Of a stretch of DNA of 64,000 nt, positions 23,850-59,731 are shown piece by piece; positions within the stretch are counted from its first letter, which is position 1; each line of letters opens with the position of its first letter. Position numbers and translations under genes: made by a program. The stretch is taken from positions 186,001-250,000 of the forward strand of contig NZ_SMNA01000005.1 of the NCBI RefSeq assembly GCF_004353825.1, written 5' to 3'. Under the pieces are notes generated by a model. It saw nothing but the letters and a program-made list of their open reading frames with translations. It was not told the DNA's origin and searched no databases. This stretch comes from Occultella glacieicola. Lineage in GTDB: Bacteria; Actinomycetota; Actinomycetes; Actinomycetales; Beutenbergiaceae.

Positions 23850-23850
23850 C

Positions 23851-28268: not shown

Positions 28269-28295
28269 GGGAGCACCTCTAGGTCTAGTCCGTCC

Positions 28296-35809: not shown

Positions 35810-35918
35810 CGGCTTCCACCTCCTGGATATCCAACGATGGTAGCCATGAGTCACGGCGGGCGCCGCGGTCGACGCGGCGTACGGTGGAGGTCGTGACGGC
35901 GGCACTGCGGAGACGGCG

Positions 35919-40477: not shown

Positions 40478-41268
40478 GCCGGCGCCACCGGGTCCTGTTC
40501 CCAGACCTTCCACGGCGCCTGGCCGCGTGCGTTCATCTCGTCCATGACCTGGCGGTCCTTGAACGTGTCCATCCCGGCCCAGAACCCGTCGTATCTGTAG
40601 CCGACCAGCTTGCCGGCCTCGAGGAGTCTTCCGAACGGCTCATAGACGAGTTCCTCGCCGGGCTGGATGTAGTCGAACACCTCGCGCCGCAGCACGAAGA
40701 ACCCGGCGTTGACCCACATCCCGGCGCCGCTGGACTCGGTGATCCCGGTGACGTGCGAGTTGTCGTCGAGGTTGACGATGTGGAAGGTCTGGCTCGGCTT
40801 CGTGCAGAGGAACGTCGCGATCGCATCATGTTCGTGCGCGTGGTCGATCAGGGTGGTGAGCGGGACACTGGACAGGCCGTCGCTGTAGTTGGCGAGGAAC
40901 TCCTCGTCGTCGCCGAGGAAGTCCTTGACCTTCACCATCCGCTGACCGATGTTCGTCGCCAGCCCGGTGTCCACGAACGTGATCTTCCAGTCCTGGGCGT
41001 CCGTGTGCAGCATCGTGATCTCACGGCCACCGCCGGAGAGCACGAAGTCGTTGCTGAGCCACTCCTTGTAGTTGAGGAAGTACTCCTTGATGACCTCGCC
41101 CTTGTACCCGAGGCACACGATGAACTCCGTGTGCCCGTAGTGGGCGTAGTACTTCATGAGATGCCAGATGATCGGGCGGGAGCCGATCGGCACCATCGGC
41201 TTGGGCACCGACTCGGAGAACTCGCGCATGCGCATACCCATGCCGCCGGCGAACAACACGACCTTCAT
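40474..41268 (-). CDS. rfbF: Glucose-1-phosphate cytidylyltransferase-like sugar nucleotidyltransferase
   Basis: FAGGMGMR...PKPMVPIG, LGYKGEVIKEYF, VDTG and FWAGMDT motifs. Confidence 0.8.
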   Translation of the reverse strand: MKVVLFAGGMGMRMREFSESVPKPMVPIGSRPIIWHLMKYYAHYGHTEFIVCLGYKGEVIKEYFLNYKEWLSNDFVLSGGGREITMLHTDAQDWKITFVDTGLATNIGQRMVKVKDFLGDDEEFLANYSDGLSSVPLTTLIDHAHEHDAIATFLCTKPSQTFHIVNLDDNSHVTGITESSGAGMWVNAGFFVLRREVFDYIQPGEELVYEPFGRLLEAGKLVGYRYDGFWAGMDTFKDRQVMDEMNARGQAPWKVWEQDPVAPA

Positions 41269-41278
41269 CGCAGACCTC

Positions 41279-42538: not shown

Positions 42539-42551
42539 TCGTGGCTCCGGA

Positions 42552-43736: not shown

Positions 43737-43875
43737 TCTGGAGACACTAGTGAAGGAGCCCTTCGGCCGTTGGGCAAATGACGGGCCCCTCTGGGTGAAC
43801 TGCCGCCGTCATCGGGTGTCACCTTGATCTCACCCCGGGTGAGGTAGGGCGTACCTTTGGCCGTCGCGGTTTCTC

Positions 43876-45513
43876 TCATCGGACGTGCCGCCCACGGCTT
43901 TCCACGGGGATCTCCTCGGACTCGATCCCCGAATCAGGCTGACGTCCTTTCCCACTGCCGTCATGGGTGCTCTGCGCGCGGCCGTCCGCGTCCGCGCCCG
44001 CCCGGACGAAGTGCTGGGGACGAGCAGCGACCCATGCCGCCGCGATCCGCTTCCGGAAGTTCGCGCCCACTGGCGTCGAGACAAACTTGTCCCCGGGAAC
44101 GGCAAGTTGTATTGCATTGGTTGGAGAGGTGCCGTCGAGACGCCACAGGGCACCGATGGCACCCATGAAGATGCAGACGACACCGACGAACGTCGCGAAA
44201 GAGAACGAGTCAAAGGTCCCGCTCGCCATCAGGGCCGCGGGCATCGTCACGGCAAGTGCCTGGCCCAGGTGCCGGGTCTCCTGATTCTTGCCGCGGAGCC
44301 GAATGCTTCGCCCCATCAGATACGGCACCAAGAAGAACAGAACCAACCCGATCACTCCTATGACTCCACCTGCGAGGAGGGTCATGTAGATCTGGTTGTC
44401 CAGCAGGATGTACTCCTCTGGCGTCACCATCCCCGCGCCGCGGCCGAACACCGGACGCAACGACCAGAGGTCCATGACGTAACCGGTGCGAGCAATCCGG
44501 TCCGTCACGCTCGTGTCGTTCTCAGCGTTGGTGAAGAGGGACTTGATCGTGCCGAGGACGCCGCGGTTCACCAGGTGGAAGACTGCGGTCGCCATGATGC
44601 CAATGACGAGGGCGTTGTAGCGCTGTCGCCACGGCCAGATCAGGGCAAGCAAACCCATGGTGACGAGCACCGTAAGGATCGCCGATCGCGAGATTGAGAG
44701 CGGGATCCCCATCGCGACCAGCCCAGCCCCGATCCAGCGCCATACGCGCGTTCGGCCAGGTGGCGAGAATAGGGCGAAATGGAGCGCTACCGGAAGAACC
44801 AGTGCGAGAACGACCCCGAACTCGATGTAGTGGTTGGCCGTCGAGGCCACCCTCGGGAAGCCACCGTCGCCGCGTGCACTGATCCCGATCAGTTCGGCAT
44901 TAGCGTGCAGGCCCGGGATCTTGATGTACTGCGTGATATCGATCACGCCAGCGAACTGCAAGGCGCCGATGACGGACATAACCGCTGCCAATGCGATGAC
45001 CACTTGGAGGAGTCTGTCGAGTTCGCGGCGCGTGCGGACGCCGTCCGCGGTGACGAGGGCGACACCCGCGATGGACGCGGTGAAGATCAGCCACCGGTCT
45101 GCGCTACTCGCCTCGCCCGCAGTGGGGAGCCGGTCGAATCCGATCACGTTGCCCAGCAATTGCAGCCCGACGTACATACCGATCACCCAACGAATCGGTT
45201 GCCGACCGTCCGGGAGGTGATGAGATCGGATCGCGGAAAGGACCCAGAGGAATGCCAACATGATCCCGATTGCGACGGATGGTCGTCCGACGGCGCCGAG
45301 ACCACCGATCACGAGACGGGCCGGGATCAGGAACTGCAGACACAGGAACAGCACCAGGAGCCCGAGGGTGGTCAGCGTCCAGCGATGGATCAGTGCAGGA
45401 ATCCATTCCTCCCGGACTCGCTTGTACCCATCCGGAACTCTGAGAAGGATGGGTCGCCATGCCTCTTGCTCTGATGAGTTCGCCCGTACCGCCGCACCGC
45501 GGTGGAAGGTCAT
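43876..45513 (-). CDS. O-antigen ligase / Wzy polymerase family membrane protein
   Basis: Many TM helices; RVAST..H.IEFG, SISRSA, FGRGAG and LDNQIY motifs. Confidence 0.8.
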   Translation of the reverse strand: MTFHRGAAVRANSSEQEAWRPILLRVPDGYKRVREEWIPALIHRWTLTTLGLLVLFLCLQFLIPARLVIGGLGAVGRPSVAIGIMLAFLWVLSAIRSHHLPDGRQPIRWVIGMYVGLQLLGNVIGFDRLPTAGEASSADRWLIFTASIAGVALVTADGVRTRRELDRLLQVVIALAAVMSVIGALQFAGVIDITQYIKIPGLHANAELIGISARGDGGFPRVASTANHYIEFGVVLALVLPVALHFALFSPPGRTRVWRWIGAGLVAMGIPLSISRSAILTVLVTMGLLALIWPWRQRYNALVIGIMATAVFHLVNRGVLGTIKSLFTNAENDTSVTDRIARTGYVMDLWSLRPVFGRGAGMVTPEEYILLDNQIYMTLLAGGVIGVIGLVLFFLVPYLMGRSIRLRGKNQETRHLGQALAVTMPAALMASGTFDSFSFATFVGVVCIFMGAIGALWRLDGTSPTNAIQLAVPGDKFVSTPVGANFRKRIAAAWVAARPQHFVRAGADADGRAQSTHDGSGKGRQPDSGIESEEIPVESRGRHVR

Positions 45514-45525
45514 CGCCGTGAGCCG

Positions 45526-46362
45526 TCAGCGAGGTCTGGACGAGCCGGCGACCATCTCGGCTCGCCTACCGGAACTATTGATCATGGGTGACTCACTTTG
45601 GTTCGCGTCATCCTGAACCGGCGGCGTCCCGTCGTTCCGGCTCCCGAACAGCATGTCCACGTGCTCGCCTCGACCCTCGTCCGGGGCGAGGTCATCGGGC
45701 CGACCATCGTCCGGATCGAGCCCGGGCTCGACAGCCTCCGATTCCGACGCCGCGCGACGCTCCTGACGATGCGCTCGTGCCCGCTTGATGAGTCCGATGA
45801 GGTCGTCGAACAGGACCGCGATGAGCAACGAGAGTGCGGCTCCGAGGACACCGACGATCGCCATGTTCCGGGTCTTTCCATCAGCGACGACGGCCGTCAC
45901 AGCTGGTTCCTGGAGCACATCGAGTCCGTACTGGGTGGCGGGTGGCAGTCCCGCGTTCGTCTGCCGTGTAGTGAGTTCTTCACGCGCGAGCTCGAAGACC
46001 ATCTCGCCCGTGGCGACTCCAGCCTCTGGCGTGTCCGCGCGCACTTCGAAGTTCAAGACAGTACTGCGAGTCGTCGGAGCAACGGTGTACGTGGGAACGA
46101 GGCCCGCCGCTGCAACCTCAGCTTGCGTCTCCGTGCCGTTCAGGACGATTCCGAGGACCGAGTTCGCGTCGTCCAATCCGCCGTAGGGATTCGCAATCTC
46201 CGCGACGGCCCGGCCCGGCACGACGATCGCCGAAGCTGCAATGTTGTACTCGGGCTGAACCCGCTCTCCGACCGCATACGCGGCCGCGCCACTGAGGGCG
46301 AGCAAGGGCAGCAAGATGTACCAGCGGCGCAGTGCCGCAACTGTGATTGACCAGACGTCCAT
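45526..46362 (-). CDS. Chain-length determinant (Wzz-like) protein
   Basis: MDVWSITVAALRRWY N-terminal TM plus a C-terminal TM flanking an extracellular loop. Confidence 0.65.
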   Translation of the reverse strand: MDVWSITVAALRRWYILLPLLALSGAAAYAVGERVQPEYNIAASAIVVPGRAVAEIANPYGGLDDANSVLGIVLNGTETQAEVAAAGLVPTYTVAPTTRSTVLNFEVRADTPEAGVATGEMVFELAREELTTRQTNAGLPPATQYGLDVLQEPAVTAVVADGKTRNMAIVGVLGAALSLLIAVLFDDLIGLIKRARAHRQERRAASESEAVEPGLDPDDGRPDDLAPDEGRGEHVDMLFGSRNDGTPPVQDDANQSESPMINSSGRRAEMVAGSSRPR

Positions 46363-46508
46363 GACGAGGACTCCCTCCGAGGCTCCACCTGTTGCGAGCC
46401 GTGTCCTTCATGCTATGAGTGGCGTGTCGGGGCCGCAGGCAGACCACAAGCCCAACACATTCCCTACTGCACTTCGCCTCACACTCTCGCGAAGTGTTCA
46501 TATGTCAA

Positions 46509-49487
46509 TTACGGCAACGGCGTCACCGTGACGTTTCCGAACGTTGCGTCTACATGGTGTGCGATGAGAACGACAGATCCGTTCGACACCGTGTCGACAT
46601 CAGTGATGGTCCCTGACCAAGTGGTCGGCTCGGAGGTGCCCTGTTCCCACATCCGCATCGAGTAGGTGGCACCGCCCGAAGGCAGGCCTTCCACGCGTAC
46701 GCGCATCATGTAGGTGTCACCCGGGCTGAAGTCAATCGCGTTGCGCGCACCCCGGACTACCGGGCTGTTGTGGTTGCCGAAGAGTTCCCATCGCGGGCCG
46801 TTCTCGTAGAAGCGGTACCAGGAGTAGGCACCCGCTGGATACCAGCCGTAGGCGAGCGGCTCTCCCTGGACCTGCGTGTGGCCCTGCCATCTGAGCCCGA
46901 TGCCGATCATGGGGTCACCCGAGAGGTACTGCCCTGCGCCTGGCCCGAAGCTGTGCAACGTCATCGGCACCGTCACCTCGTAGTCGGTCCAGGCGGAGTC
47001 ACCGACCGCGAGTATCCGGTCGTAGCCGACCTGCACGGTGCTCACCGAACCGTTGTCGACCCGCCACAGCCCATCGACCGATTGCGCCTGGGTCTGGAGT
47101 GCGGCACTGCCTGACCAGGCGGTCGTGTAGGGCAGGCTCAACGAGCCGTTCTGGATCGTCACATTCACCGTCTCGGTCACCGAGGAACCATTGGTACCGA
47201 GCGCCGTGATCGTGACCACGTTCGACCCCGTGTTGAGATCGGCGTAGGGAATATCGGCGTTGAAATCACCCGGCATAGCGAGGCGACGGTTGTCAGGGCC
47301 GAGGGAGAGAGCCCTCGCCGTTCCGCCGTTGACGCGATAGGTCAGCGAACTCACTCCGTCCGGGTTCGACACGGAACCGACGATGTTGATCCGCGGTTGA
47401 GTCCGGGCTGGGGCTCCGAAGCTCTGGTCCGAGCCGTACCAGATGTCGATCGCGGGGCCAGCCGTCTGCTCCAGCGTCGTGAATGTCCGGTCCTGGGTGA
47501 CAGTGGCGTTGCCGCTGGTGTCGGTGGCGGTGATCCGGTAGTGATACGTCGTCGCGGGCGCCAACCCGGTCAGCGTCGCGGCGTGGGACGTCCCCGACCC
47601 GGACGAACTCGCGGTACTGCCGTAGGACGTGGTCGTCCCGAACGCGACCGCACCCGTGGCCGCCTCGTTCGTCGTCCACGAGACGACCGCAGAGGACGCC
47701 GTCGGTGTCGCACTCACACCACTGACCGCCGGCGCCGTCACATCCGGCTCCGGTTCCGGATCGGGATCGGGATCGGGACCCGGGTCAGCACCGCCGTCCT
47801 CGGGCACGATCGGGTTCGCCCGGTCGAACACGTAGTCCACCAGAGCCGTGTAGGCAGCGGGGTTCGAGCCCGCATTAGCCGCGAACGGCCCCACCGAACC
47901 AACCGTCAACGCCTGCGAGAACGTGCCGATCACCTGCGGCGAGCCACCATCAACGGCCACCGTCATCGTCCACGAGTTGCCGACCCGGCCGACCCCGACC
48001 ACCACCGAATCCGTCGGCTGCACCGCTAACACCTTGTTGAACTTGGTCTTCGACGAACCACTGGTCGTCGCGGCAGCAAACGCCCGGACCACCCCACCGC
48101 TGGCGAACACATCGAACCGCAACCAGTTCGACGCATCCTGCTCCACGATCAAACCCTGATCGTGGTTCGTCGTCACCGGCACCGAATCGAAACCAGCGTC
48201 CACCGCGAAGTCCGTGTTCGAGACCGCCTGCATCACCCGCAGCGACCGGTTCACACCCCACGCATCGTGAGACTCCCCCGCACCCACCGTCAGCGACAGC
48301 TGCGCATCCCCGGTCCCCTCACCGACCAACTCAACCGAACCATCACCCACATGATCCGTCACAGACCACCCAGACCCGAGCACAGAACCCGAGAAATCAT
48401 CAGACGAGAACACAGCGTTCGGGGTGCTGCTCGCGGTCGTGGTGAAGGTGAGATCGGCTGAGCTGCCGGCGTTGCCGCTGGTGTCGGTGGCGGTGATCCG
48501 GTAGTGATACGTCGTCGCGGGCGCCAACCCGGTCAGCGTCGCGGCGTGGGACGTCCCCGACCCGGACGAACTCGCGGTACTGCCGTAGGACGTGGTCGTC
48601 CCGAACGCGACCGCACCCGTGGCCGCCTCGTTCGTCGTCCACGAGACGACCGCAGAGGACGCCGTCGGTGTCGCACTCACACCACTGACCGCCGGCGCCG
48701 TCACATCCGGCTCCGGTTCCGGATCGGGATCGGGATCGGGACCCGGGTCAGCACCGCCGTCCTCGGGCACGATCGGGTTCGCCCGGTCGAACACGTAGTC
48801 CACCAGAGCCGTGTAGGCAGCGGGGTTCGAGCCCGCATTAGCCGCGAACGGCCCCACCGAACCAACCGTCAACGCCTGCGAGAACGTGCCGATCACCTGC
48901 GGCGAGCCACCATCAACGGCCACCGTCATCGTCCACGAGTTGCCGACCCGGCCGACCCCGACCACCACCGAATCCGTCGGCTGCACCGCTAACACCTTGT
49001 TGAACTTGGTCTTCGACGAACCACTGGTCGTCGCGGCAGCAAACGCCCGGACCACCCCACCGCTGGCGAACACATCGAACCGCAACCAGTTCGACGCATC
49101 CTGCTCCACGATCAAACCCTGATCGTGGTTCGTCGTCACCGGCACCGAATCGAAACCAGCGTCCACCGCGAAGTCCGTGTTCGAGACCGCCTGCATCACC
49201 CGCAGCGACCGGTTCACACCCCACGCATCGTGAGACTCCCCCGCACCCACCGTCAGCGACAGCTGCGCATCCCCGGTCCCCTCACCGACCAACTCAACCG
49301 AACCATCACCCACATGATCCGTCACAGACCACCCAGACCCGAGCACAGAACCCGAGAAATCATCAGAGACCAGCACGGAAGCGGCCGTGGCCGGTGGTGC
49401 CATACCGGCGAGCGCCACTGCTGCGGCACCGGCGATCGCCAACGCCATCCGGATTGGGTGGATCGCAGTTGCGTTCTTCGCGTTCAT
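46509..49487 (-). CDS. Secreted protein with duplicated concanavalin-like + FN3-like module
   Basis: Signal peptide; two identical ~300-aa modules (SDDFSG...; WTTNEAATG...GLAPATTYHYRITATD FN3-like). Confidence 0.75.
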   Translation of the reverse strand: MNAKNATAIHPIRMALAIAGAAAVALAGMAPPATAASVLVSDDFSGSVLGSGWSVTDHVGDGSVELVGEGTGDAQLSLTVGAGESHDAWGVNRSLRVMQAVSNTDFAVDAGFDSVPVTTNHDQGLIVEQDASNWLRFDVFASGGVVRAFAAATTSGSSKTKFNKVLAVQPTDSVVVGVGRVGNSWTMTVAVDGGSPQVIGTFSQALTVGSVGPFAANAGSNPAAYTALVDYVFDRANPIVPEDGGADPGPDPDPDPEPEPDVTAPAVSGVSATPTASSAVVSWTTNEAATGAVAFGTTTSYGSTASSSGSGTSHAATLTGLAPATTYHYRITATDTSGNAGSSADLTFTTTASSTPNAVFSSDDFSGSVLGSGWSVTDHVGDGSVELVGEGTGDAQLSLTVGAGESHDAWGVNRSLRVMQAVSNTDFAVDAGFDSVPVTTNHDQGLIVEQDASNWLRFDVFASGGVVRAFAAATTSGSSKTKFNKVLAVQPTDSVVVGVGRVGNSWTMTVAVDGGSPQVIGTFSQALTVGSVGPFAANAGSNPAAYTALVDYVFDRANPIVPEDGGADPGPDPDPDPEPEPDVTAPAVSGVSATPTASSAVVSWTTNEAATGAVAFGTTTSYGSTASSSGSGTSHAATLTGLAPATTYHYRITATDTSGNATVTQDRTFTTLEQTAGPAIDIWYGSDQSFGAPARTQPRINIVGSVSNPDGVSSLTYRVNGGTARALSLGPDNRRLAMPGDFNADIPYADLNTGSNVVTITALGTNGSSVTETVNVTIQNGSLSLPYTTAWSGSAALQTQAQSVDGLWRVDNGSVSTVQVGYDRILAVGDSAWTDYEVTVPMTLHSFGPGAGQYLSGDPMIGIGLRWQGHTQVQGEPLAYGWYPAGAYSWYRFYENGPRWELFGNHNSPVVRGARNAIDFSPGDTYMMRVRVEGLPSGGATYSMRMWEQGTSEPTTWSGTITDVDTVSNGSVVLIAHHVDATFGNVTVTPLP
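47505..49367. repeat. Intragenic 900-bp direct repeat (47505-48404 = 48468-49367, offset 963)
   Basis: Boundaries read from the sequence; alternative-frame ORFs recur identically at +963. Confidence 0.93.
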
Positions 49488-50410
49488 GAGGAGCTTCCGT
49501 CGACTTGGTGGATGAGTTCGGGAGGTGCGAGTAGCCGGCCTCTGACGCGTGCCCTGAGGCGGCCCGCACTGATGCGAGCCCTACGGGTGGAGTAGGCAAC
49601 GGCGAACGCAGCCCCGGAGGCCAGGTCGTCTGGCGTCGACCCCGTGGTGCGTGCGAGAGCTCCCGTCGTTCGACCGAGGAGTCTCAGGCGCACAAACGTC
49701 GGCGCTCTCGTTGCTGCGGGATCGAACCAGCTGGCGATCTCCGAAGCTGTGGTTCGGCCCTGCCGTGATGAACTCTCGTGAATCCGGCGCCGGAACAGTC
49801 GACGATCGACCAGATCAAATCCACCGAGGGCAGCCATCTGGGCCAGGAAAGTAACGTCGGAAGAGATGTAGGAACGAATCAAGTCGGTCCTGGCCATCGG
49901 CTCGCGACGCATCACCCCGAACGCGGCGTTGCACAGGTTGAATCGCCAGGCGAACGCCGCGACTCGGCGCCAGGGCGTTGGGGCCGTGACATCGAGCTTC
50001 TCGTCATAGGCGCGTACGTCTTGGCCGGTGCCATCGATGATGGTCGCCTGCGTGAATGCGAGCACCGCGTCTCGATTGGCGTCGAGGGCGGCAACGCAGG
50101 AACTCACGTACGAGGGGTCGAGGAGATCGTCGTAACCGGCCCACTTGAACAGTTCGGCTCGGGAGTCCCTCACGAGGCGGTTGTAGTTGAACGCCGCCCC
50201 CATGTTCCGGTCGTTCCGGACAAGGCGCACCCGCGAGTCCCGCTCAGCGACCGACTCGACGATGTCGACCGTGCGATCCGTCGAGGCGTTGTCCGAGATC
50301 ACCAGCTCGAAATCGCTGAAGTCCTGAGCCAGCAGGCTCTCCAGCGTCTCCGCGAGGTACACCTCTCCGTTGTAGACGGGCAGGCCGATCGTCAGCCTCG
50401 GGGTACTCAC
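49484..50410 (-). CDS. Glycosyltransferase family 2
   Basis: IGLPVYNGE, ISDNASTD, NMGAAFNYN and WAGYDD motifs. Confidence 0.92.
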   Translation of the reverse strand: MSTPRLTIGLPVYNGEVYLAETLESLLAQDFSDFELVISDNASTDRTVDIVESVAERDSRVRLVRNDRNMGAAFNYNRLVRDSRAELFKWAGYDDLLDPSYVSSCVAALDANRDAVLAFTQATIIDGTGQDVRAYDEKLDVTAPTPWRRVAAFAWRFNLCNAAFGVMRREPMARTDLIRSYISSDVTFLAQMAALGGFDLVDRRLFRRRIHESSSRQGRTTASEIASWFDPAATRAPTFVRLRLLGRTTGALARTTGSTPDDLASGAAFAVAYSTRRARISAGRLRARVRGRLLAPPELIHQVDGSSS

Positions 50411-51585
50411 AGCGCCTCCACGGTCGGGGTGAGGCCGAGGTCGGTCAGTTCCGCACCGATCTCGGTGCGGTAGGCACCGTTCATCACGATCACCAGGGCC
50501 GGCTCGGCGTCGGTCAAGTCCTTCGGTGCGAGCACCCGGTGTCCGGTGCCGGCCATGTACTGGTTCTGCTTGAACGGGTTGATGTCCACGACCCCGTCCA
50601 CCAAGCGGGAGTCCGCGCCGAGTGCGGCGAGGAAGGCCACGCCCTTGGACCCGCCACCCCAGATGACGGTCCGGCCACCGCCGGCGTGCACAGTCCGGAT
50701 CCGGTCGCGCCAGTGATCGACCATCGCCTGGTGTCCGCGGGCGAACCGGGCGGCCGCCTCCGCGAGTTCCGCCGGATCTTCCTCGATCGGGATCGCTGCG
50801 GTCGCGACGCCGCCGACCGCGGGGCGGGCTTCGACGAGCAGGGTCTGGTCGGAGTAGGCACGTTCGATGGCGAGCACGTCGAATCCGGCAGCGCGGAACA
50901 GCCTGCCGACCGAACCGGCGGAGAAGTAGGAACTGTGCTCGTAGTACACGTCCCAGAACGCGACCTCGTCGAGGACGCGCCGCACGTCCGGAACCTCGAA
51001 CAGCAGGACGGTGCGTTCGGGTTCGGTGATCGCGGACCGGATGGCGGCGAGGAACTCACGGACGGGGGCGATGTGCTCGAGGGTGTGCCGACAGACGATG
51101 GCGTCCGCCCGCAGGTCCGGAAGGTCCTGCGGAAAGAGTCCTTGGATCCAGGTCAGGGGTAGGCCTGCCGGGATCCGCGCGGGCTGCACGCCTGGGTCGA
51201 TGCCGATGCCGCTGCCGATGCCGGCTCGCGCCAGCTCGACCAGGAACTCGCCCTTGCCGCAGCCGATCTCGACGACGGTGCCGCCACCCAAGGAGTAGCG
51301 CTCGACCCAGTCGGCGGCGAGGTGGTGGATGAAGGCTTGGAAGGTCGGCGAGAAGCCCTGGGTCTCCTCGTAGTCCTGCGAGTAGGTCATCAGCTCCGGG
51401 TCGTAGCGGCAGTTCCAGATGAGCCCGCAGGCGGGACACAGGGCGAGGGCCAGGGCTCCCTTGGGGAAGTCGACGGCGGCGTCTCGGTCCCCGAGGAGCA
51501 GGCAGCTGTTGACCGGGACGGGTTCACCCACGTGGAAGGGTTCCGGTGCAGCGGCACCGCAGGCGGGGCAGGTGCCGGCGGTCAC
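50407..51585 (-). CDS. C-methyltransferase-like SAM-dependent methyltransferase (paralog of 42552-43736)
   Basis: CPAC..CPAC, EIGCGKG, RHTLEH, YYEHSSYF and WGGGSKG motifs. Confidence 0.85.
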   Translation of the reverse strand: MTAGTCPACGAAAPEPFHVGEPVPVNSCLLLGDRDAAVDFPKGALALALCPACGLIWNCRYDPELMTYSQDYEETQGFSPTFQAFIHHLAADWVERYSLGGGTVVEIGCGKGEFLVELARAGIGSGIGIDPGVQPARIPAGLPLTWIQGLFPQDLPDLRADAIVCRHTLEHIAPVREFLAAIRSAITEPERTVLLFEVPDVRRVLDEVAFWDVYYEHSSYFSAGSVGRLFRAAGFDVLAIERAYSDQTLLVEARPAVGGVATAAIPIEEDPAELAEAAARFARGHQAMVDHWRDRIRTVHAGGGRTVIWGGGSKGVAFLAALGADSRLVDGVVDINPFKQNQYMAGTGHRVLAPKDLTDAEPALVIVMNGAYRTEIGAELTDLGLTPTVEAL

Positions 51586-52889
51586 GGAGCAACCCGTTCG
51601 GCGATGTTATGACTCGGGGTGTCGGCGCCGTGGGCACGTTCCGCGGGTCGCGCACGACCGACGAGACTGTCGAAGACACCCACGTAGGCGCGGGCCTGGA
51701 TCGACCAGGACAACTCGTTCTCGATGCGGCTCCGCCCGAGCCGACCCATCACCACGCGACGCTGTGGGTCGTCGAGCAGCGCCGCGATCTCCGTCGCGGC
51801 ATGTGCCGGGTCGTCACCGGAGACGTACACGGCGGCGTCCTGTGCGCAGCGCCTGGTCTCGCGCAGGTTCGTGGCGACGACCGGGATCTCGTGGGCCATG
51901 TACTCGAGGGTCTTGTTCATCGTGGACCGATGGTTGAACTCGTTCTCGGGGTCGGGTGTGACGCCGAGGTCCGCGGTGGACAGCCAGCGACCCAGTTCCT
52001 CATGGTCCACCCTCCCGGTGAAGGTGACCCAGGGGTCGAGACCGCGGGCGGTCGCGTCCGCCTTCAAGGCCTCGAGGCTGTCGCCGAATCCCAGGAGTGC
52101 GAAGCGGGTGTCCTCGCGGCCGAGGTCGTGGACGTAGTGATCGATGGTCGCGAGAAGTCCGTCGACGCCGTCCTGCGGGCCCATGATGCCCACGTAGCAG
52201 ACCAGGTGTTCCCGTCCGCCGCGAAGTTCGGGATGCGCCCGGCCGCGGCGCATCCGGTCCGCGTCGGGGGTGCTCATCACCACCGCCGTCCGGCGGGCGG
52301 GTACCCGGCCCCGTTGGAGCGCGATGTCGCGGTAGGCGGGGTTCGGTGAGATCACGCGGTCTGCGACCCGGTAGGTCATCGACTCGAGGAACAGCAGCGC
52401 CCGGTGAACGAGTCCACGCTTGCCGAAGCGGGCCTCGTAGACCTCGGGACAGAGATCGTGCTGATCGAAGACGTAGCGACGACTACGGAGCTTCCAGAGG
52501 GCACCTAGCAGCCAATAGGTGTCCGGTGGATTGCAGGCTTGGAGCACGTCGAAGCCGCGGTCCCGGTTCACCTTGAAGGACAGCCTCGCGGTCTGGAGCC
52601 AGCACAGCGCGAACTCGCGGACGTAGCTGACCAGCCCGGAGCTCTCCGGCGGCGCCGCGTAGGAGTACACGTGGATGTCGTCGAGGATGTGACGATCCGG
52701 CTCGCCGGCGGTCTCCTTCGGGCAGATGACGCTCACGTCATAGCCCGCGCGCACCAAGGCGGCGCATTCGGTACGGACCCGGCGGTCGATGCGCAGCGGC
52801 AGGTTCTGAATCACGATGAGCGCACGTGGCCTACGCCCGGCGGCCGCCTCGGCCGTGGCCGGCGTCCGTCCGTTCCGGCGATTCCACAT
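51582..52889 (-). CDS. Glycosyltransferase family 4
   Basis: DRRV..E, ACNPPD, FDQHDLCPE, YVGIMGPQDG and NKTLEYMA motifs. Confidence 0.92.
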   Translation of the reverse strand: MWNRRNGRTPATAEAAAGRRPRALIVIQNLPLRIDRRVRTECAALVRAGYDVSVICPKETAGEPDRHILDDIHVYSYAAPPESSGLVSYVREFALCWLQTARLSFKVNRDRGFDVLQACNPPDTYWLLGALWKLRSRRYVFDQHDLCPEVYEARFGKRGLVHRALLFLESMTYRVADRVISPNPAYRDIALQRGRVPARRTAVVMSTPDADRMRRGRAHPELRGGREHLVCYVGIMGPQDGVDGLLATIDHYVHDLGREDTRFALLGFGDSLEALKADATARGLDPWVTFTGRVDHEELGRWLSTADLGVTPDPENEFNHRSTMNKTLEYMAHEIPVVATNLRETRRCAQDAAVYVSGDDPAHAATEIAALLDDPQRRVVMGRLGRSRIENELSWSIQARAYVGVFDSLVGRARPAERAHGADTPSHNIAERVAP

Positions 52890-53150: not shown

Positions 53151-53993
53151 GTGGATACTCGCGGCGTGGTCTCCATCATCGTTCCGGCGCACAACGAGGA
53201 GCGGTCCTTGCCTCGGCTGTTGGACGCGCTCGACGACCCGCGGTGGGCTCCGGAGGAGGTCATTGTGGTCGCGAACGGCTGCTCGGACCGGACGGCGCAG
53301 GTCGCCCGGGCGCGCGGGGTCACCGTGATCGAGACGCCGATCCCGTCGAAGATCAAGGCGCTCGCGCTCGGGGACGCCAGGGCCACCTCCTTCCCGCGCA
53401 TCTACGTCGACGGTGACGTGGTTCTCGGAGCCGACTCCGCACGAGCGCTGTGTGGCGCTCTCACCGATGGCGTGCAGGCCGCCGGGCCGATCAGGAGCTT
53501 CCCGATGGCCAGGGTGTCGGCACCGGTGCGCTGGTACTACGACGTCTGGCAGCGTCTGGACGGCGTGCGGACCGAACTGTACGGACGCGGGGTGGTCGCG
53601 GTGAGCGAGGTCGGCCACGCCCGGATCCGGGACTGGCCGGAGACCATGTCCGACGACCTGCACCTGGCGATGAGTTTCGCCCCGGACGAGCGCACCGTGG
53701 TAGCGGCCGCCCGCGTCACGATCATGCCGCCGAAGACCTACCGCGACCTGCTGCGCCGGCGGGTTCGCGCCATGACCGGAAACGCGCGGATGGCGGGCAC
53801 ACCCGAGGCACCGGCTGTGCGCAGTGCCGGGGCAAGTCCGGCCGCCATCGGACGGATGGTGGCCGCCGAGCCCCGGCTGCTGCCCGGCGCCGCGGTCTTC
53901 GTCGTCACGGCCGCCATCTCGAAACTCCTCGGCCGCAGAGCCGCCCGACGCGGGGACACCACCTGGCTCCGAGACGAGAGCAGCCGTCGCTGA
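53151..53993 (+). CDS. Glycosyltransferase family 2
   Basis: IVPAHNEE, ANGCSDRTA and YVDGD motifs; start uncertain (53070 or 53151). Confidence 0.85.
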   Translation: MDTRGVVSIIVPAHNEERSLPRLLDALDDPRWAPEEVIVVANGCSDRTAQVARARGVTVIETPIPSKIKALALGDARATSFPRIYVDGDVVLGADSARALCGALTDGVQAAGPIRSFPMARVSAPVRWYYDVWQRLDGVRTELYGRGVVAVSEVGHARIRDWPETMSDDLHLAMSFAPDERTVVAAARVTIMPPKTYRDLLRRRVRAMTGNARMAGTPEAPAVRSAGASPAAIGRMVAAEPRLLPGAAVFVVTAAISKLLGRRAARRGDTTWLRDESSRR

Positions 53994-54275: not shown

Positions 54276-54539
54276 GTGCAGTTGCGTAAAGACGGGGTCA
54301 CCTGGCGCGAGATCGACGGCGAGATGGTCCTCCTCGATCTGAAGACGTCCAAGTACCTCACCACGAACCGGGCGGGCACGACGCTGGTCAAGCTGCTCGC
54401 CGAGGACCGAACCGCCGACGACCTCACCAGTGCCTTGGTCACCGAGTTCGGTATCAGTGCCGACCGAGCGGCCGGCGATGTCGCCGCCTTCGTGGGCTCG
54501 CTCGAGCAGCGAGGGCTGCTTCAGGTCGCTGCTCGCTGA
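54276..54539 (+). CDS. PqqD-family RiPP recognition element (lasso B1/E protein)
   Basis: 87 aa; WREIDGEMVLLDL..SKYLTTN..G..L..LL...L...F...DVAAFV..L...GLL PqqD pattern; GAGGGGAG RBS. Confidence 0.92.
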   Translation: MQLRKDGVTWREIDGEMVLLDLKTSKYLTTNRAGTTLVKLLAEDRTADDLTSALVTEFGISADRAAGDVAAFVGSLEQRGLLQVAAR

Positions 54540-54607
54540 GGCGTTCCAAGTTTCCGGCACATCAGGCCGGGGCCAACCAACGACACCACGTGAGGGGGTG
54601 ACACCAC

Positions 54608-54733
54608 ATGTACGAATCTCCGATGATCCAGGAGGTCGGCTCCGTCCGCGACCTCACCCTGGGCGAAGGCTGGGCCGGGAGTGACGACACGTTCCTGTAC
54701 TTCATCCGGTACGGGACCGACCCGTCCTCCTGA
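54608..54733 (+). CDS. Lasso peptide precursor (41 aa; leader MYESPMIQEVGSVRDLTL, core GEGWAGSDDTFLYFIRYGTDPSS)
   Basis: Manual translation; GAGGGGGTGA RBS; YxxP and GxxxxxT(-2) leader motifs; Gly1 core with Asp8/Asp9; lies between the RRE and cyclase genes. Confidence 0.93.
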   Translation: MYESPMIQEVGSVRDLTLGEGWAGSDDTFLYFIRYGTDPSS

Positions 54734-54741
54734 CCTCGATG

Positions 54742-54783
54742 GGAGCGGGCCCGCTGGCCGATGCCGGTCAGCGGGCCCGCTCC
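54742..54783 (+). terminator. 19-bp stem-loop after the precursor gene
   Basis: GGAGCGGGCCCGCTGGCCG-atgc-CGGTCAGCGGGCCCGCTCC (one G-U pair) followed by TTGCTT. Confidence 0.8.
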
Positions 54784-54837
54784 TTGCTTCAACGCGTCCG
54801 GCGCAGGCACTCAGCATCGATCTGATTGGAATCCGAC

Positions 54838-56004
54838 ATGGCGGAAGCACCCCCGATGGAGGGGTACGTCCGATCCGACCCCTTCGAGGTGGCGACGTGC
54901 TGGAAGTACGGCCTGAGCAGGCCGACGCCATTGCCACCGCAGCAACTGTCTCCCCGAGGTGCGTTGGAAGCGGCGATCATGCCTGCGCTGGTCGAGGGTG
55001 CGTGTTATGTCACGTTCTCCGGGGGCCGCGACTCCTCGGCGATCCTCGCGACTGCGACCCACCTGGCTCGGCGGGAGGGCCTACCCGACCCGGTTCCCGT
55101 GACGCGCCTCTACCCGAATGTCCCGGACTCGGACGAGTCCGAGTGGCAACACCTTGTCATCGACCACCTCGGCCTCAGCGAGTGGCTCCGACTGGAGTTC
55201 ACCGACGACGAGACCGATCTGCTCGGCCCCGCGGCCCAGGCGAGCGTGCGACGTCATGGACTGCTCTGGCCACCTGCGGTTCACAGTCACGGCCTCGTCT
55301 ATCAGCACCTCACCGGCGGGGCGATGTTGACCGGAGAGGGTGGCGACGAGGTCCTCGGCGCTCGTAGGGTCACGCCACTCACCTTGCTTCGCCGGCGTCG
55401 CCGCCCGACTCGCGCTCTCCTGCGCGGAGCGGCTCATGCGCTCTCGCCCTCCTCGGTTCGCCGACGTCAGATACGCCGGGAACTGGAGTCGGCGCGGCTC
55501 CAACACTGGCTCCGCCCCGATGCCAAGAACCAACACTTGCGACTGATGGCCGCCGACGAAGCCACCGAGCCGCTGAGTTACGAAGCCGCCACCTGGTGGA
55601 TCACCAGACGTCGCAGCTGGGCGACGATGGCCGCCAATCAGGCCCTGATCGCCGGGACTTACCAGGTCCGCGCATCGAACCCGCTCCTCGACGACGATTT
55701 CATCGCGGCGCTGGCACATGCCGGGGCCACCTGGGGATACAACGGCCGCACCGCGACGATGAAGGCGCTCTTCTCGGACGTGCTGCCGTCGGCGTTGCTC
55801 TCCCGTCGGACCAAGGCCAGCTTCAATCGGGCCTACGCCGGGAGATACACCCGTGAGTTCGCACGGCATTGGGACGGCTCGGGCGTCGACGGTGAGCTCG
55901 TGGACCCGGAGATCCTGCGGGACGTCTGGCTGTCGGATGAACCGACGATGTCGACCGCGATGCTTCTCCACCAGGCCTGGCTCGCTGCCCCGGTGACACA
56001 GTGA
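54838..56004 (+). CDS. Lasso peptide cyclase (Asn-synthetase-like C protein), short form
   Basis: FSGGRDSS PP-loop, TGEGGDE, NPLLD and RRTKASF motifs; operon context; start uncertain (54826-54856). Confidence 0.85.
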   Translation: MAEAPPMEGYVRSDPFEVATCWKYGLSRPTPLPPQQLSPRGALEAAIMPALVEGACYVTFSGGRDSSAILATATHLARREGLPDPVPVTRLYPNVPDSDESEWQHLVIDHLGLSEWLRLEFTDDETDLLGPAAQASVRRHGLLWPPAVHSHGLVYQHLTGGAMLTGEGGDEVLGARRVTPLTLLRRRRRPTRALLRGAAHALSPSSVRRRQIRRELESARLQHWLRPDAKNQHLRLMAADEATEPLSYEAATWWITRRRSWATMAANQALIAGTYQVRASNPLLDDDFIAALAHAGATWGYNGRTATMKALFSDVLPSALLSRRTKASFNRAYAGRYTREFARHWDGSGVDGELVDPEILRDVWLSDEPTMSTAMLLHQAWLAAPVTQ

Positions 56005-56453
56005 GCGTCCGTCGGCCCCCGTTCGGCGAATGGCCGTGGATCGTCGCGGCTCTCGCCCTCGCAGTCGTGGCCGAACTTGGGCTGCGCACCGCGGGCCTGC
56101 CGCGCCTTGCCCGCATGTTCGGGACCCCGCTTCGGACCGACGACTCCACGCCCGCGCAGCCGGATCACCCGTCCGGCGCGCCGGTCCTGGATGACCGGGC
56201 ACGACGCCAGGTGCGGTCGAGTCGCAGGGTGATGCGCCACTGGCCATTCGGTGACACGTGTCTGCGTCAGGCACTTATCAGCGGTGCTCTTCTGCGTCGG
56301 CTCGGGCCCGAGTTGCTCGTCGGAGTCGCCAAGATCGACGGCCAGGTCCGCGCGCACGCCTGGCTCGAGATCAATGGCGGCATCCTCGACCCGCTGGGCG
56401 CGGCAGCGTCCTACACACCGCTGCTCTCACCCGATGCCTTGGACGTGAAATGA
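56001..56453 (+). CDS. Lasso peptide leader peptidase (B2, transglutaminase-like)
   Basis: TCLRQAL (catalytic Cys), LLVGV and AHAWLE motifs; GTGA coupling to the cyclase. Confidence 0.92.
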   Translation: MSVRRPPFGEWPWIVAALALAVVAELGLRTAGLPRLARMFGTPLRTDDSTPAQPDHPSGAPVLDDRARRQVRSSRRVMRHWPFGDTCLRQALISGALLRRLGPELLVGVAKIDGQVRAHAWLEINGGILDPLGAAASYTPLLSPDALDVK

Positions 56454-57415
56454 ACACGACCAAGCTGTACGGCCTGAACCTCGACTCCGAGATCGCTCTG
56501 CACCAGACGCGGCCTGCCGACGGTCCGACCGACGTGACGATCCGGGTCGGGGCACCCATGGGGACCACCGAGGCCGCACCCCCTGGTCGGATGCTCCTGC
56601 ATCTGGACGGCGACAAGCAGTACTACTCCGCGACCGAGACCGACTCCGGTTACCTGCTCCGGTTCTACCGGACCTGCGACTTCGTGATCGATCCCGGACT
56701 CACCACCGTGACCGCCCATCTGGTGCATGGCGCCGACCCCGAACGGGTGGGGGTTCTCGCCGCCGGAACCATGCTCTCCTTCCTGCTGGCCCTGCGTCGA
56801 CGTCCGGTGCTGCACGCCAGCGCGGTGCAGGTCGGGGAGGCCGCCCTCGCGTTCGTGGGCCGTTCCGGCATGGGCAAGTCGACGATGGCGACGTTGATGG
56901 CCGCTGACGGCGCCCGGCTGATCACCGACGACGTGCTCCACCTCGATCTGGACACGGTGCCGCCGCGGTGTCATCTCGGGGCGACGGAACTGCGTCTGCG
57001 CAAGGCGGCCGGCGACCTCGCGGCACGGTTCGCCGTCGCCCCCGGGCGTCGCCTGACCGGCGACGACCGGGACGCGCTCGCGATCCGGTCGGCCGACACG
57101 GATCTGTTGCCTCTGCACGCGATCGTGATCCCCGCCCCGGACCACTCGGAGCAGGATCGCGAGCCGGAGTTCCTTCGGCTCTCCCCGCGGGACGCCCTGC
57201 TGCACCTGCTGATGTTTCCCCGGATCGTCGGCTGGCAGGATCCCGCCGCCGTCGACCTCCAGTTCCAGCACCTCAGCGACGTCGTCGAGAAGGTTCCGGT
57301 GTACGTCGCGCGCCTTCCGTGGGGACCGCCGTTCCCGCCGGCCATCGCGGCGCAGGTGCTGACCGCCGTCGGCCTGGATCAGGCGGTCACGGCCGATTCC
57401 ACCGCATCGAGGTAG
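56450..57415 (+). CDS. HPr kinase-like lasso peptide kinase
   Basis: YGLNLDSEIAL start; LHASAV, GRSGMGKST Walker A and LITDD motifs; ATGA coupling to B2. Confidence 0.85.
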   Translation: MNTTKLYGLNLDSEIALHQTRPADGPTDVTIRVGAPMGTTEAAPPGRMLLHLDGDKQYYSATETDSGYLLRFYRTCDFVIDPGLTTVTAHLVHGADPERVGVLAAGTMLSFLLALRRRPVLHASAVQVGEAALAFVGRSGMGKSTMATLMAADGARLITDDVLHLDLDTVPPRCHLGATELRLRKAAGDLAARFAVAPGRRLTGDDRDALAIRSADTDLLPLHAIVIPAPDHSEQDREPEFLRLSPRDALLHLLMFPRIVGWQDPAAVDLQFQHLSDVVEKVPVYVARLPWGPPFPPAIAAQVLTAVGLDQAVTADSTASR

Positions 57416-58581
57416 ACATTGAGGGCGTCCTCGCCCGCCTTCACCCGAGCGGACCGTGCGATCGGAGGAGTCCGGCGAGTCCGTTCCCGCACGCCGACCG
57501 CGGCGTTGCGCCCAGCCGCGACGAGGGTCCGTGCCGCGCCCGGCTGCGCGGCCCGAGCCACCAACCGTGCCAGGCCCGGCTCCTGACGCGCCCGCGGAAC
57601 CGGCGCGAACCGGTCGACCGTCGCCGTCAGGACGCCGAAGGGCGCGGACAGCCCCAGCCGGTGGTCCAGGTCCTGCGGTAGCGGCGTGCCGAGCACCCGC
57701 TTCGCCCGGGCGAGGACCAGGGCGACGTGCGGCTCTGCGCGCCAGGCCCGGGCGCGAGTGGCCACTTCGTCCCAGTCCTCGATCTGGGCGGCCAGCCGGT
57801 CGGCATCCACGAGCAGGAGGAGTCTGTTCGCACCGGTCAGCGCCGCGTGCAGGCAGACGTGCACCAGGGCATCCGCCGGCGACAGCGCCCAGGCGCGGTT
57901 CAGACCCAGCATCACCGGGGTGCGACGGCCGAGGAGCTCAGGGGTCGGCACCGCGAACCGCGCACGCCGGACCGCCATGTTGATCATGGACCAGTGCAGG
58001 TCCATCAGCAGCCCTGACGGGCCGACCCAGTGCATCTCCCCCGGGGTCTGCGGGTTGCGGAGCATGTCATCGAAGTCGGCGATCTTCCAGCCGGCGTCCA
58101 GGAGTCGGTGCGCGACCTCCCGCAGGTCCGTGGGATCGACGAGCGTATCGATGTCGTGGTACGTGCGCAGCCCTTGCGCCGGATGAGCCGTCTCGGACAG
58201 GAACGGGCCCTTGAACGTCACCCAAGGGATGTCGTCGAGGACGGCGCCGAACTGCTCGAGCATGATGGTGGCTCGGATGTGGATGCCCATGGCGTGGTCC
58301 CGGTCGACGCGCAGGAGCGCCGCGTCCTCCGGAGACCGATCCCGGAGCGCGAGGTGCACGAGCGGTGCGACCCGGTGGTATCGGGCGGCCTGGACCAGGT
58401 CCGACCGCGCTTCCGACCCCGGCGCGGTCAGGTTGCGTTCCCCTCGGGCACTGTGGACGAGCAGTTCGGAGACCGCTTGCTGCGTCCGTGAAGCCCTTCC
58501 CGGGATGGCACGAACCACTGGAACTCCCGGACGTCGTTGGGCGATCCCCTCAGGGACAGCGATCGGTGTCACTGCGCGCAT
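57379..58581 (-). CDS. Nucleotidyltransferase (NTP_transf_5-like)
   Basis: FKGPFL...R.YHDIDTLV, DLHW and LVHVCLHA motifs; converges on and overlaps the kinase gene; start uncertain. Confidence 0.82.
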   Translation of the reverse strand: MRAVTPIAVPEGIAQRRPGVPVVRAIPGRASRTQQAVSELLVHSARGERNLTAPGSEARSDLVQAARYHRVAPLVHLALRDRSPEDAALLRVDRDHAMGIHIRATIMLEQFGAVLDDIPWVTFKGPFLSETAHPAQGLRTYHDIDTLVDPTDLREVAHRLLDAGWKIADFDDMLRNPQTPGEMHWVGPSGLLMDLHWSMINMAVRRARFAVPTPELLGRRTPVMLGLNRAWALSPADALVHVCLHAALTGANRLLLLVDADRLAAQIEDWDEVATRARAWRAEPHVALVLARAKRVLGTPLPQDLDHRLGLSAPFGVLTATVDRFAPVPRARQEPGLARLVARAAQPGAARTLVAAGRNAAVGVRERTRRTPPIARSARVKAGEDALNVYLDAVESAVTA

Positions 58582-58684: not shown

Positions 58685-59542
58685 TCAGGCCGTCTTGATC
58701 ACATGGACGAAGCAGCCGGGTACCTCCCGGTCACGGCGCCGGTCCGCCTCCGGAGTTGCCCCAACGAACCGGTCCACCTCCTCCTGCACCGGTAGCAGGT
58801 GCGGAAGTTGGGCCCGCCCGTCCCGGAAGACGGCGTGTCCACCGACGGCGATCGCCGGCCACCAGTTCTCGATCTCGGCGCGGATCCCGTCGCCCGAGAC
58901 CGAGGCGTCGAAGAAGACCAGGTCGTAGGGGTCGGGGCCCGGCTCGTGCAGCCGGGTGTCCCCGACCACCAGGTCCACCTGCTCGCGCAGCCCCATCCGG
59001 TCGAGCACGCGCTCCAGTTCCGGACCCCAGACGTCCTGCTTGGGGTTGCCGTCGATGGAGGTCACCCGGGCACCGCTCGCGGCGTAGAACACGGTCGAGC
59101 CACCGCGGAAGCGGCCGAGTTCGGCCATGCGCGGTCGATCGATCGCGGCCAGGATCCGGTAGAGGTAGGCGGCCTCGTCGAAGTCGAGGCGGGTGAACCG
59201 GTGGTTCAACCAGTTCGAGGAGAACAGCCAGACCAGGTCCTCGAAGCGCTCCGCCGGCACCCGGAACGCGGGCTCCGCCTGCGCCGTGTCCCAGTCCGCG
59301 GTGCGCGCCATCTTGTCCGAGAGGGAGAGCAGGAGTTCGGCGCGCACGTGTGGGTTGCGCATCGCCGAGCGGACGATGGCGAGCCCCACACGGCTACCCA
59401 CCACGGCGGAGGCCGTGCGACGTCCCACGGAACGCACACCCGAGCCGGCGGCTCTCTGCGGGCCGAGCCAGATGCGGTCGGACACCGGTGAGCCGGCCGA
59501 ACGCGACGGTGGAAACGAGCGCTTGAGCGTAGACAACACCAC
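58685..59542 (-). CDS. Class I SAM-dependent methyltransferase (Methyltransf_24-like)
   Basis: ELGRFRGGST, SID, DLVFFDA and GGHAVFRD motifs; start uncertain. Confidence 0.75.
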   Translation of the reverse strand: MVLSTLKRSFPPSRSAGSPVSDRIWLGPQRAAGSGVRSVGRRTASAVVGSRVGLAIVRSAMRNPHVRAELLLSLSDKMARTADWDTAQAEPAFRVPAERFEDLVWLFSSNWLNHRFTRLDFDEAAYLYRILAAIDRPRMAELGRFRGGSTVFYAASGARVTSIDGNPKQDVWGPELERVLDRMGLREQVDLVVGDTRLHEPGPDPYDLVFFDASVSGDGIRAEIENWWPAIAVGGHAVFRDGRAQLPHLLPVQEEVDRFVGATPEADRRRDREVPGCFVHVIKTA

Positions 59543-59731
59543 GAGAACTCCCCGGAAAACGTCGGTCGTGCCGCTTCGCGGACAGGCCGAAACGATGGCA
59601 CCCCGCGATGAACTCCAGACGTGACGAAGGCTATTACTCGAGGTCGCCGTCCGTGGCCGAATGATGAGCCCCGGAGATTTGGATCCTGTCGCGCGGATCC
59701 GCCGCCCGGCGCGCACCGTGTGAGAGAACGC

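Follow-up and report, generated by a model that had tools for sequence, protein, structure and literature searches.

A lasso peptide gene cluster with a one-domain cyclase, a peptide kinase and a nucleotidyltransferase in a polysaccharide locus of Occultella glacieicola

The lasso peptide pseudomycoidin is encoded in Bacillus pseudomycoides DSM 12442 by the cluster psmCAKB1B2ND (PMC6993621), and the same seven functions can be found in the actinobacterium Occultella glacieicola, in a window of 64,000 nucleotides (contig NZ_SMNA01000005.1 of assembly GCF_004353825.1, forward-strand positions 186,001 to 250,000; all positions below are those of the window). An earlier note on this window had described the interval 54276-58581 as a complete lasso peptide cluster inside a polysaccharide island. 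The locus is a real and intact gene set for a lasso peptide. While the gene set itself is known from pseudomycoidin and from the bsf cluster, the locus is set apart by a cyclase of only one domain and by an exporter gene which is split off by glycan genes.

Pseudomycoidin and the peptide predicted here have in common a ring between residue 1 and Asp9, a C-terminal Ser, a kinase with an Asp-Asp pair and a nucleotidyltransferase with an Asp-x-Asp motif. In the Bacillus system PsmK depends on D158/D159 and PsmN has the essential pair D134/D136; PsmN, described as an uncharacterised nucleotidyltransferase with an ANT(2'')-like fold, is required in E. coli for placing one or two hexoses on the phosphate, possibly with help from the host (PMC6993621). 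The Occultella locus differs in its actinobacterial host, the gene order B1-A-C-B2-K, the convergent gene N, the distant exporter gene D, the one-domain cyclase and an unrelated core, the Psm proteins having been compared by description.

The paeninodin (pade) and ThcoK/SyanK systems likewise combine a split B protein with a kinase of HPr type whose target is the C-terminal Ser of the precursor; no nucleotidyltransferase is described for pade, whereas the present cluster has one. For phosphorylated lasso peptides of proteobacteria the order A-B1-B2-C-K-D is reported, and the actinobacterial split-B clusters of lariatin, sviceucin and streptomonomicin are presented without a kinase (PMC9266682, PMC5067487). 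The bsf cluster of Bradymonas sediminis comprises A, B1, B2, C, D, K and N as here, and the BsfK residues H148-G163-G166-G168-K169-S170-D186-D187 stand at the same offsets as in our kinase; however, BsfK phosphorylates Ser3 of the ring and the bsf leader has Ile at -2, where the Occultella precursor has a terminal Ser and Thr at -2 (PMC10368454). An actinobacterial lasso peptide glycosylated on Ser is known from the davasins of Streptomyces davaonensis, but there a deacetylase/GT2 fusion acts on the mature lasso and, as far as the available text goes, kinase and nucleotidyltransferase are missing (PMC11912497). Further related work is found in PMC9266682, PMC13352647, PMC5067487 and PMC11705953.

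Two reports come nearer still in one respect each. In Bacillota, clusters for paeninodin-like and for linear polyphosphorylated peptides (LPP) lie in capsule loci and include, as here, a recognition element for ribosomally synthesised and post-translationally modified peptides (RiPP; RRE), a kinase resembling HprK, an NTP transferase and an exporter resembling MsbA. Co-localisation with capsule loci and co-induction are in print, no role being assigned, and Paenibacillus alginolyticus up-regulates one of these clusters along with an exopolysaccharide gene (PMC13381572). These Bacillota belong to another phylum, and LPP clusters are recognised by a leader peptidase of the signal-peptidase-I type without a macrolactam cyclase, whereas our locus has a B2 peptidase and a cyclase and no protease of that type. 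The second report concerns a lasso family of Jiangella, listed in silico as uncharacterised, which is the same family as ours: its 47- and 44-residue precursors, the leader end GSVRELTL and the Ala1-Asp9 ring match our locus L052. Kinase, terminal Ser, cyclase size and polysaccharide link are not mentioned in the available part of that report (PMC13608877).

Gene set, precursor and tailoring enzymes

All seven elements which the earlier note had placed in the interval were recovered. B1 (54276-54539, plus strand, 87 amino acids (aa)) is an RRE protein matching PqqD (PF05402) with 56 bits against a cutoff of 23 (E 4.5e-15) and lasso_PqqD_Strm with 57 bits, below the cutoff of 70 for that model. 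The precursor A (54608-54733, plus strand, 41 codons) is preceded by a GAGGGGG site and reaches 31.1 bits with the lasso leader model NF033521 (cutoff 19). Downstream follow, all on the plus strand, a hairpin of 19 bp computed 3' of the precursor stop codon (54742-54783), the cyclase C (54838-56004, 388 aa), the leader peptidase B2 (56001-56453, 150 aa; NF033537 with 64.6 bits, cutoff 33), with its Cys in TCLRQAL and its His in AHAWLE, and the HPr-kinase-like peptide kinase K (56450-57415, 321 aa). The nucleotidyltransferase N (57379-58518, 379 aa) is convergent on the minus strand. Each core gene gives one profile match in the whole genome, and the combination of an RRE with a transglutaminase-like cysteine peptidase is that of class II lasso peptides.

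The translational overlaps reported earlier hold for C/B2 and B2/K (4 nt each); B1 and A are separated by 68 nt and A and C by 104 nt, and the 3' ends of K and N overlap by 37 nt. The open frame of the cyclase begins with a TTG at 54826, ahead of the ATG at 54838. For N the GTG at 58518 is a more likely start than the ATG at 58581, because a GGGAG site precedes the former. The interval can not be called complete, because the exporter gene D (36864-38729, plus strand, 620 aa, MsbA-like ABC exporter) lies 15.5 kb upstream of B1. Over 610 aa its product shares 67% identity with the exporter next to a Tessaracoccus cluster (L016), and it is the best genome match for five of six exporter queries from related loci, with 486-625 bits as against at most 166 for the next protein; the sixth query is another kind of ABC protein, which clustering had grouped with the others.

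The family is widespread in Actinomycetota. Scanning a genome collection revealed at least 429 related stretches, the best 80 of which, many of them kin, were kept as family loci; they span Micrococcales, Propionibacteriales, Jiangellales, Pseudonocardiaceae, Acidimicrobiia, Gaiellaceae, Solirubrobacteraceae and Nitriliruptoraceae. An even sample of Actinomycetota gave matches at E 1e-30 in 8 of 400 other genomes, and seven out of 24 family-level relatives of the host match, one of them weakly and partially. With profiles built from the family loci themselves, B1 is matched in 77 of the 80 loci, short contigs included, B2 in 73, the kinase in 67, and N and the exporter in 54 each. Where an exporter is present it mostly lies within 3.5 kb of the cyclase gene (45 of 54 loci).

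The precursor consists of an 18-residue leader and a 23-residue core. The leader shows the motif YxxPxI...G...T of class II lasso leaders with Thr at -2 (YESPMI...DLTL), and the core has Gly1, Asp8, Asp9 and a C-terminal Ser23 and is free of Cys, as expected for a lasso peptide. A motif scan, whose filter allowed Asp or Glu at positions 7-9 and ignored the last residue, yielded 78 candidate precursors, spread over 68 of the 80 loci. Asp9 is present in all 78 candidates and Asp at position 8 in 29, and we read the ring as Gly1-Asp9 because Asp9 is constant although the filter accepted other choices. The first core residue is Gly or Ala in 64 candidates, the last one is Ser in 71, and the tails frequently finish as a flexible Gly/Pro-rich spacer followed by Ser. 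Two loci (L010, L011) encode a precursor protein identical to this one, each with three synonymous and no non-synonymous codon changes, while their cyclases differ by 15%; together with L012 they are from named type strains with the same or nearly the same peptide.

As stated in the earlier note, the peptide could not be matched to a known one, no identical characterised peptide being found in the literature and the PDB. Among PDB chains there was no match to the precursor beyond a weak leader similarity to the MS-271 precursor; a literature search found neither of two precursor motifs in print, and no paper joining 'lasso peptide' and 'Occultella'. In both sources, too, neither a characterised phospho-lasso peptide from an actinobacterium nor an entry for this core turned up, supplements, which may list such clusters, being outside the scope of the search.

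The kinase matches PF07475 with E 5e-05, which is under the Pfam cutoff, and its profile finds HprK structures among the matches (E 2e-05). Its residues H122, G137, G140, G142, K143, D160 and D161 are invariant or nearly so in 30 sequences, and S144 is also present; His, P-loop and Asp-Asp, with the spacing of BsfK, are thus those of an HPr-type kinase of the paeninodin type, which in such clusters goes together with a C-terminal Ser on the precursor. Kinase and terminal Ser occur together in 58 of 68 loci and are both absent in four. The exceptions are five loci with Ser and no kinase, three of which are contigs shorter than 8 kb, and one locus with a kinase and no Ser; in three related Gaiellaceae loci without a kinase match the precursors end in Pro. 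The phospho-lasso reading put forward in the earlier note is therefore well supported at the level of sequence.

N matches PF14907 (NTP_transf_5) with 114.7 bits (cutoff 31, E 6.8e-33), and D122-x-D124 is invariant in 44 sequences, as in the pseudomycoidin type. PsmN is presumably a PF14907 protein as well. The model of N (predicted local distance difference test (pLDDT) score 94) has a polymerase-beta-type nucleotidyltransferase fold with structural matches to MenT1 (Z 13.0), ANT(2'') (Z 10.1), LnuA (Z 8.5) and FKRP (Z 6.2), while a PDB sequence search with the N profile gave no match. Judged from the model, N is not a classical glycosyltransferase; its fold suggests transfer of a nucleoside monophosphate (NMP) to phosphoserine, or of a sugar-phosphate from a nucleoside diphosphate (NDP)-sugar. 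The possible glycosylation proposed earlier can refer to the hexoses that depend on PsmN (PMC6993621), but deletion of the homologous gene lppN was silent in B. subtilis (PMC13381572). Because K and N share their catalytic residues with BsfK/PsmK and PsmN, the cluster would work like those of paeninodin and pseudomycoidin, and by this analogy the product is probably phosphorylated and sugar-decorated.

The 110-nt region of the hairpin behind the precursor folds with -61.6 kcal/mol (z -5.66; none of 200 shuffles was as good), and segments below -30 kcal/mol follow the precursor in 62 of 79 family cases, compared to 68 of 300 random segments. It is likely a transcript stabiliser or attenuator, as far as the sequence tells. 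A promoter and terminator scan of the locus brought nothing telling, and searching a plasmid collection for the kinase gave no match.

Two neighbouring genes could be considered as further members. A GT2 glycosyltransferase gene (53166-53993, plus strand, PF00535) lies directly 5' of B1 in the same orientation and keeps this position in G001, G002, L010 and L012; an orthologue with at least 40% identity exists in five of 80 loci, so that it is a possible non-core member and membership in the core is unsupported. Core membership is likewise unsupported for a Methyltransf_24 gene (58685-59716), 5' of N and co-oriented with it, which is present in G002 and L010, was not found at the corresponding place in G001 and has an orthologue in two of 80 loci.

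A cyclase of one domain

The cyclase consists of the synthetase domain only, a feature that becomes evident in comparison with control cyclases and had been missed in the earlier note. It matches Asn_synthase (PF00733) above the cutoff (E 9e-17), and none of the NCBIfam cyclase models reached its cutoff on it. The PP-loop SGGRDSS lies near residue 60 and is intact; together with the second motif TGEGGD it is invariant in 32 of 32 aligned cyclases. In 81 called family cyclases the PP-loop starts at a median of residue 62, and the longest protein has 439 aa.

As a control, lasso loci were picked by the B2 model alone in 400 genomes, and 60 of the 72 matches were used; those set aside were the own genome, an unpublished genome and ten matches that were weak or lay at a contig edge. 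The nine cyclases of kinase-less loci in this control have 521-655 aa, with the synthetase domain from residue 134-235 on, and all nine possess the N-terminal domain. PsmC has two domains, too. This architecture, an Ntn-like domain followed by the synthetase domain, is typical of lasso cyclases without defining them, and the first part of it is missing here: on E. coli AsnB the alignment of the cyclase profile begins at residue 206, and the model of the protein (pLDDT 92) matches the synthetase domains of TsnB9 and of asparagine, carbapenam and beta-lactam synthetases (Z 14.7-18.4), the matched parts mostly beginning at residue 155-190 of those enzymes.

A separate gene for the N-terminal domain was not found with a profile of such domains, neither in the family loci nor in the window; in the family loci this profile matched long proteins only, namely those of full-length asparagine-synthetase-like genes and a fragment at a contig edge. 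That the cyclase gene is frameshifted or split can be ruled out, as more than 1300 relatives are of similar length and the window holds no match to the N-terminal domain. A search for a longer, fused form gave one partial match, which is weak evidence. In total 1313 relatives were counted among 8000 scored candidates, and the closest named ones come from Occultella species (85-86%).

The short cyclases form a branch of their own: when 60 synthetase domains were placed in a quickly computed tree, the 29 short ones came to lie on one side of a branch with a Shimodaira-Hasegawa-like approximate likelihood ratio test (SH-aLRT) value of 100, partly by construction, because 'short' was assigned by profile score; a sister group is not resolved. 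No description of single-domain lasso cyclases was found in the literature covered, some central papers and supplements being outside its scope.

Some loci show unusual combinations of these genes. In L060 (7932-9884) a YcaO protein and a ThcOx/nitroreductase protein adjoin two tandem single-domain cyclases; B2, kinase and precursor were not found near them by our scans, and the locus possibly represents another RiPP type with a short cyclase. The Gaiellaceae and Solirubrobacteraceae loci L068, L070-L072, L077, L078 and L084 contain two or three tandem genes of the B1 cluster, one of which carries NTP_transf_5, ABC2 and PqqD matches, as well as additional B2-like genes; some of these loci have a second short cyclase, too. 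Furthermore, 20 of the 60 B2-picked control loci (among them L119, L121, L123, L124, L127, L128, L130, L132 and L133) have B1/B2 with a kinase or nucleotidyltransferase and no cyclase match in the fetched stretch.

Polysaccharide genes around the cluster

Of the 55 family loci of at least 19 kb, 45 carry two or more polysaccharide markers and 34 an assembly marker (priming transferase, Wzy-like, flippase or Wzz-like), compared to nine and three out of 240 tiles of 21 kb from the own genome, counts which favour the family loci because the marker profiles were built from them. The link is seen in 16 of the 17 taxon groups having a long locus. Among the control stretches of at least 14 kb an assembly marker is present in four of four with a short cyclase and in three of five with a long cyclase and a kinase or N. 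It is absent from all nine with a long cyclase and neither of these genes, or from all ten when L091 is counted, whose cyclase was seen by Pfam only and which has an epimerase and a GT2 gene. Two or more polysaccharide genes occur in one of these ten kinase-less long-cyclase loci. Pfam found no priming transferase, flippase or Wzy_C in them, the scan comprising 110 of 152 called genes at E 1e-12, a threshold that could miss Wzy_C.

Genes of the Occultella island itself recur beside the cluster in other orders. Orthologues of its GT4 gene are found at ten, of the epimerase gene at nine, and of the Wzy-like and C-methyltransferase genes at eight each of the 80 loci.

As the earlier note had stated, the cluster lies in a polysaccharide island, and from its gene content the region of ~21.3-54.0 kb is a Wzx/Wzy-type surface-polysaccharide pathway. 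The block between exporter and core genes (38787-52889, minus strand, Pfam and NCBIfam matches) encodes an NDP-sugar epimerase, a deacetylase, a Glc-1-P cytidylyltransferase-like nucleotidyltransferase, three C-methyltransferases, GT2 and GT4 glycosyltransferases, a Wzy_C protein, a secreted FN3 protein and a protein that appears Wzz-like from its size and hydrophobic ends, family searches giving no match. A second part (21334-32923, no single strand assigned, Pfam matches) contains genes for a pyruvyltransferase, an FrhB-like protein, two GT2 proteins, an Asn-synthase-like protein, a racemase, a flippase and secreted proteins. In G001 and G002 the exporter gene precedes the cyclase gene by 23.7 and 26.0 kb, and homologues of most genes of the second part, among them pyruvyltransferase, GT2 and flippase, also stand in between. 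In this genus, from the positions in these three genomes, polysaccharide genes are thus enclosed between the exporter gene and the core genes. The only priming sugar transferase match of the genome is on another contig, followed by a gene of the inositol-monophosphatase family.

Several other features of the island may be mentioned. Within a secreted protein (46509-49487) a DUF1349 + FN3 unit is duplicated over a long stretch, apparently exactly. Two related secreted proteins (31319-32923 and 28296-29390) may be lyases or binders of polysaccharide; a weak beta-helix match is seen in one of them, and a long linker of Pro-Glu-Pro-Thr-Pro-Asp repeats in the other. A second, degenerate asparagine-synthase-like gene (627 aa) together with an Asp/Glu racemase gene (25682-28268) is shared with G003 and was not found in the stretches taken from G001 and G002; judged by sequence, the pair suggests a polysaccharide amidated with a D-amino acid. 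Directly 5' of the exporter gene lies a pair for a molybdopterin oxidoreductase and FdhD (formate dehydrogenase; 33317-36782), which is also present in G001, G002 and G003. In L052 (6137-9053), other Jiangella/Phytoactinopolyspora loci and L158 (9176-11830) sulfate-activation genes of the inositol-monophosphatase, PAPS-reductase and GTPase families, read as cysQ-cysD-cysN, are directly 5' of B1, often after a priming sugar transferase gene.

Proposed pathway, alternatives and meaning

Modelled on its homologues, a pathway of the paeninodin/pseudomycoidin type with a role in surface polysaccharide appears to us moderately probable as a whole. B1 would bind the leader, K would phosphorylate the C-terminal Ser of the precursor, and B2 would cleave after Thr-Leu. 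The single-domain cyclase would adenylate Asp9 and close the Gly1-Asp9 macrolactam around the aromatic tail; N would then put a further group, most likely a sugar or sugar-phosphate from an NDP-sugar, onto the phosphoserine, and D would export the product. The cluster would be inherited with the Wzx/Wzy locus and most likely serve the same process, i.e. surface or matrix formation or its signalling, and not antibiosis.

A number of observations weigh against this proposal. Concerning the chemistry, wild-type pseudomycoidin was isolated unthreaded (PMC6993621), the RODEO classifier scored the Jiangella precursors of this family negative (PMC13608877), and 26 of the 80 loci are without a match to N. 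Glycosylation would have one precedent, PsmN, the lppN deletion having shown no effect, and the pathway as a whole is drawn here from sequence and models. Concerning the role, three Tessaracoccus loci have the full B1-A-C-B2-K-N-D set and no polysaccharide gene within 10 kb, which means that the polysaccharide link is not obligatory; such genes were also not seen at one Jiangella and one Solirubrobacteraceae locus, where 55 of 72 flanking genes were scanned. N poorly tracks the markers (36 of 42 loci with N, nine of 13 without), the Pfam scan of the control loci was incomplete as described, and the 80 loci, being the best of at least 429 and often kin, are not independent, so that all counts are uncorrected for kinship.

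An ordinary secreted phospho-lasso cassette without any functional link, which tends to settle in variable surface-glycan islands as hot spots of recombination, is an unlikely alternative. The shuffled order of the island genes among congeners, unrelated genes inside the island such as the formate dehydrogenase pair, the complete clusters without polysaccharide genes and the patchy spread over Actinomycetota and over the relatives of the host would all fit such cargo. However, kinase-less lasso clusters are not placed in this way (no assembly marker in ten), and the link spans 16 taxon groups and, in print, Bacillota (PMC13381572).

It is also conceivable, yet quite improbable in our opinion, that the phosphoserine tail is the attachment point for the glycan of the surrounding locus and the lasso thus a carrier or anchor of surface polysaccharide, either by N making a Ser-P(-P)-sugar primer or linker, or by the Wzy_C protein transferring a repeat unit to the exported peptide. 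Such a covalent conjugate would agree with the bracketing of sugar, Wzy-like and glycosyltransferase genes, in G001 and G002 also of the flippase block, with the recurrence of the same island genes across orders and with the Gly/Pro-rich spacers before the terminal Ser. The modelled fold of N is that of enzymes transferring NMP or sugar-phosphate to hydroxyls (ANT(2''), LnuA, FKRP), but a Z value like that for FKRP is also typical of common arrangements. In Paenibacillus, the native host, a product could not be detected, and partners from outside are suspected by the authors (PMC13381572). On the other hand an ordinary priming sugar transferase of the undecaprenyl route adjoins 25 of the 80 loci, from which we conclude that the glycan needs no peptide primer. 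Moreover, the exporter shows no glycan-specific mark, Wzz-like proteins (45-66%) and flippases (29-72%) diverge while the peptide stays identical or nearly so, and the Tessaracoccus loci lack polysaccharide genes altogether.

That there is no stable threaded lasso at all, only a branched-cyclic or linear phosphopeptide comparable to the LPPs, is very improbable: the N-terminal domain of the control cyclases is missing without a separate gene having been found, pseudomycoidin unthreads without tailoring (PMC6993621) and cyclase-less B1/B2/K/N loci are common, but both cyclase motifs are invariant, the short form is kept in more than 1300 proteins, the constant Asp9 is explained by ring closure only, and the bulky residues F11, Y13, F14, R16 and Y17 could plug a nine-residue ring.

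For the enzymology of lasso peptides the natural 388-aa cyclase, if active, would show that the N-terminal domain is dispensable and would offer a smaller enzyme for structure determination and engineering; according to the available text of a 2026 review no lasso cyclase has a crystal structure (PMC13352647). If the conjugate were to prove true, bacteria would have a surface polysaccharide carried or anchored by a RiPP with a protease-proof knot. Returning to the paeninodin/pseudomycoidin-type pathway, the polysaccharide link, already published for Bacillota, is seen here across Actinomycetota, with controls for comparison. Phosphorylated lasso peptides showed no antibacterial activity in the tests reported (PMC6993621), and with cultured strains their purpose becomes testable.

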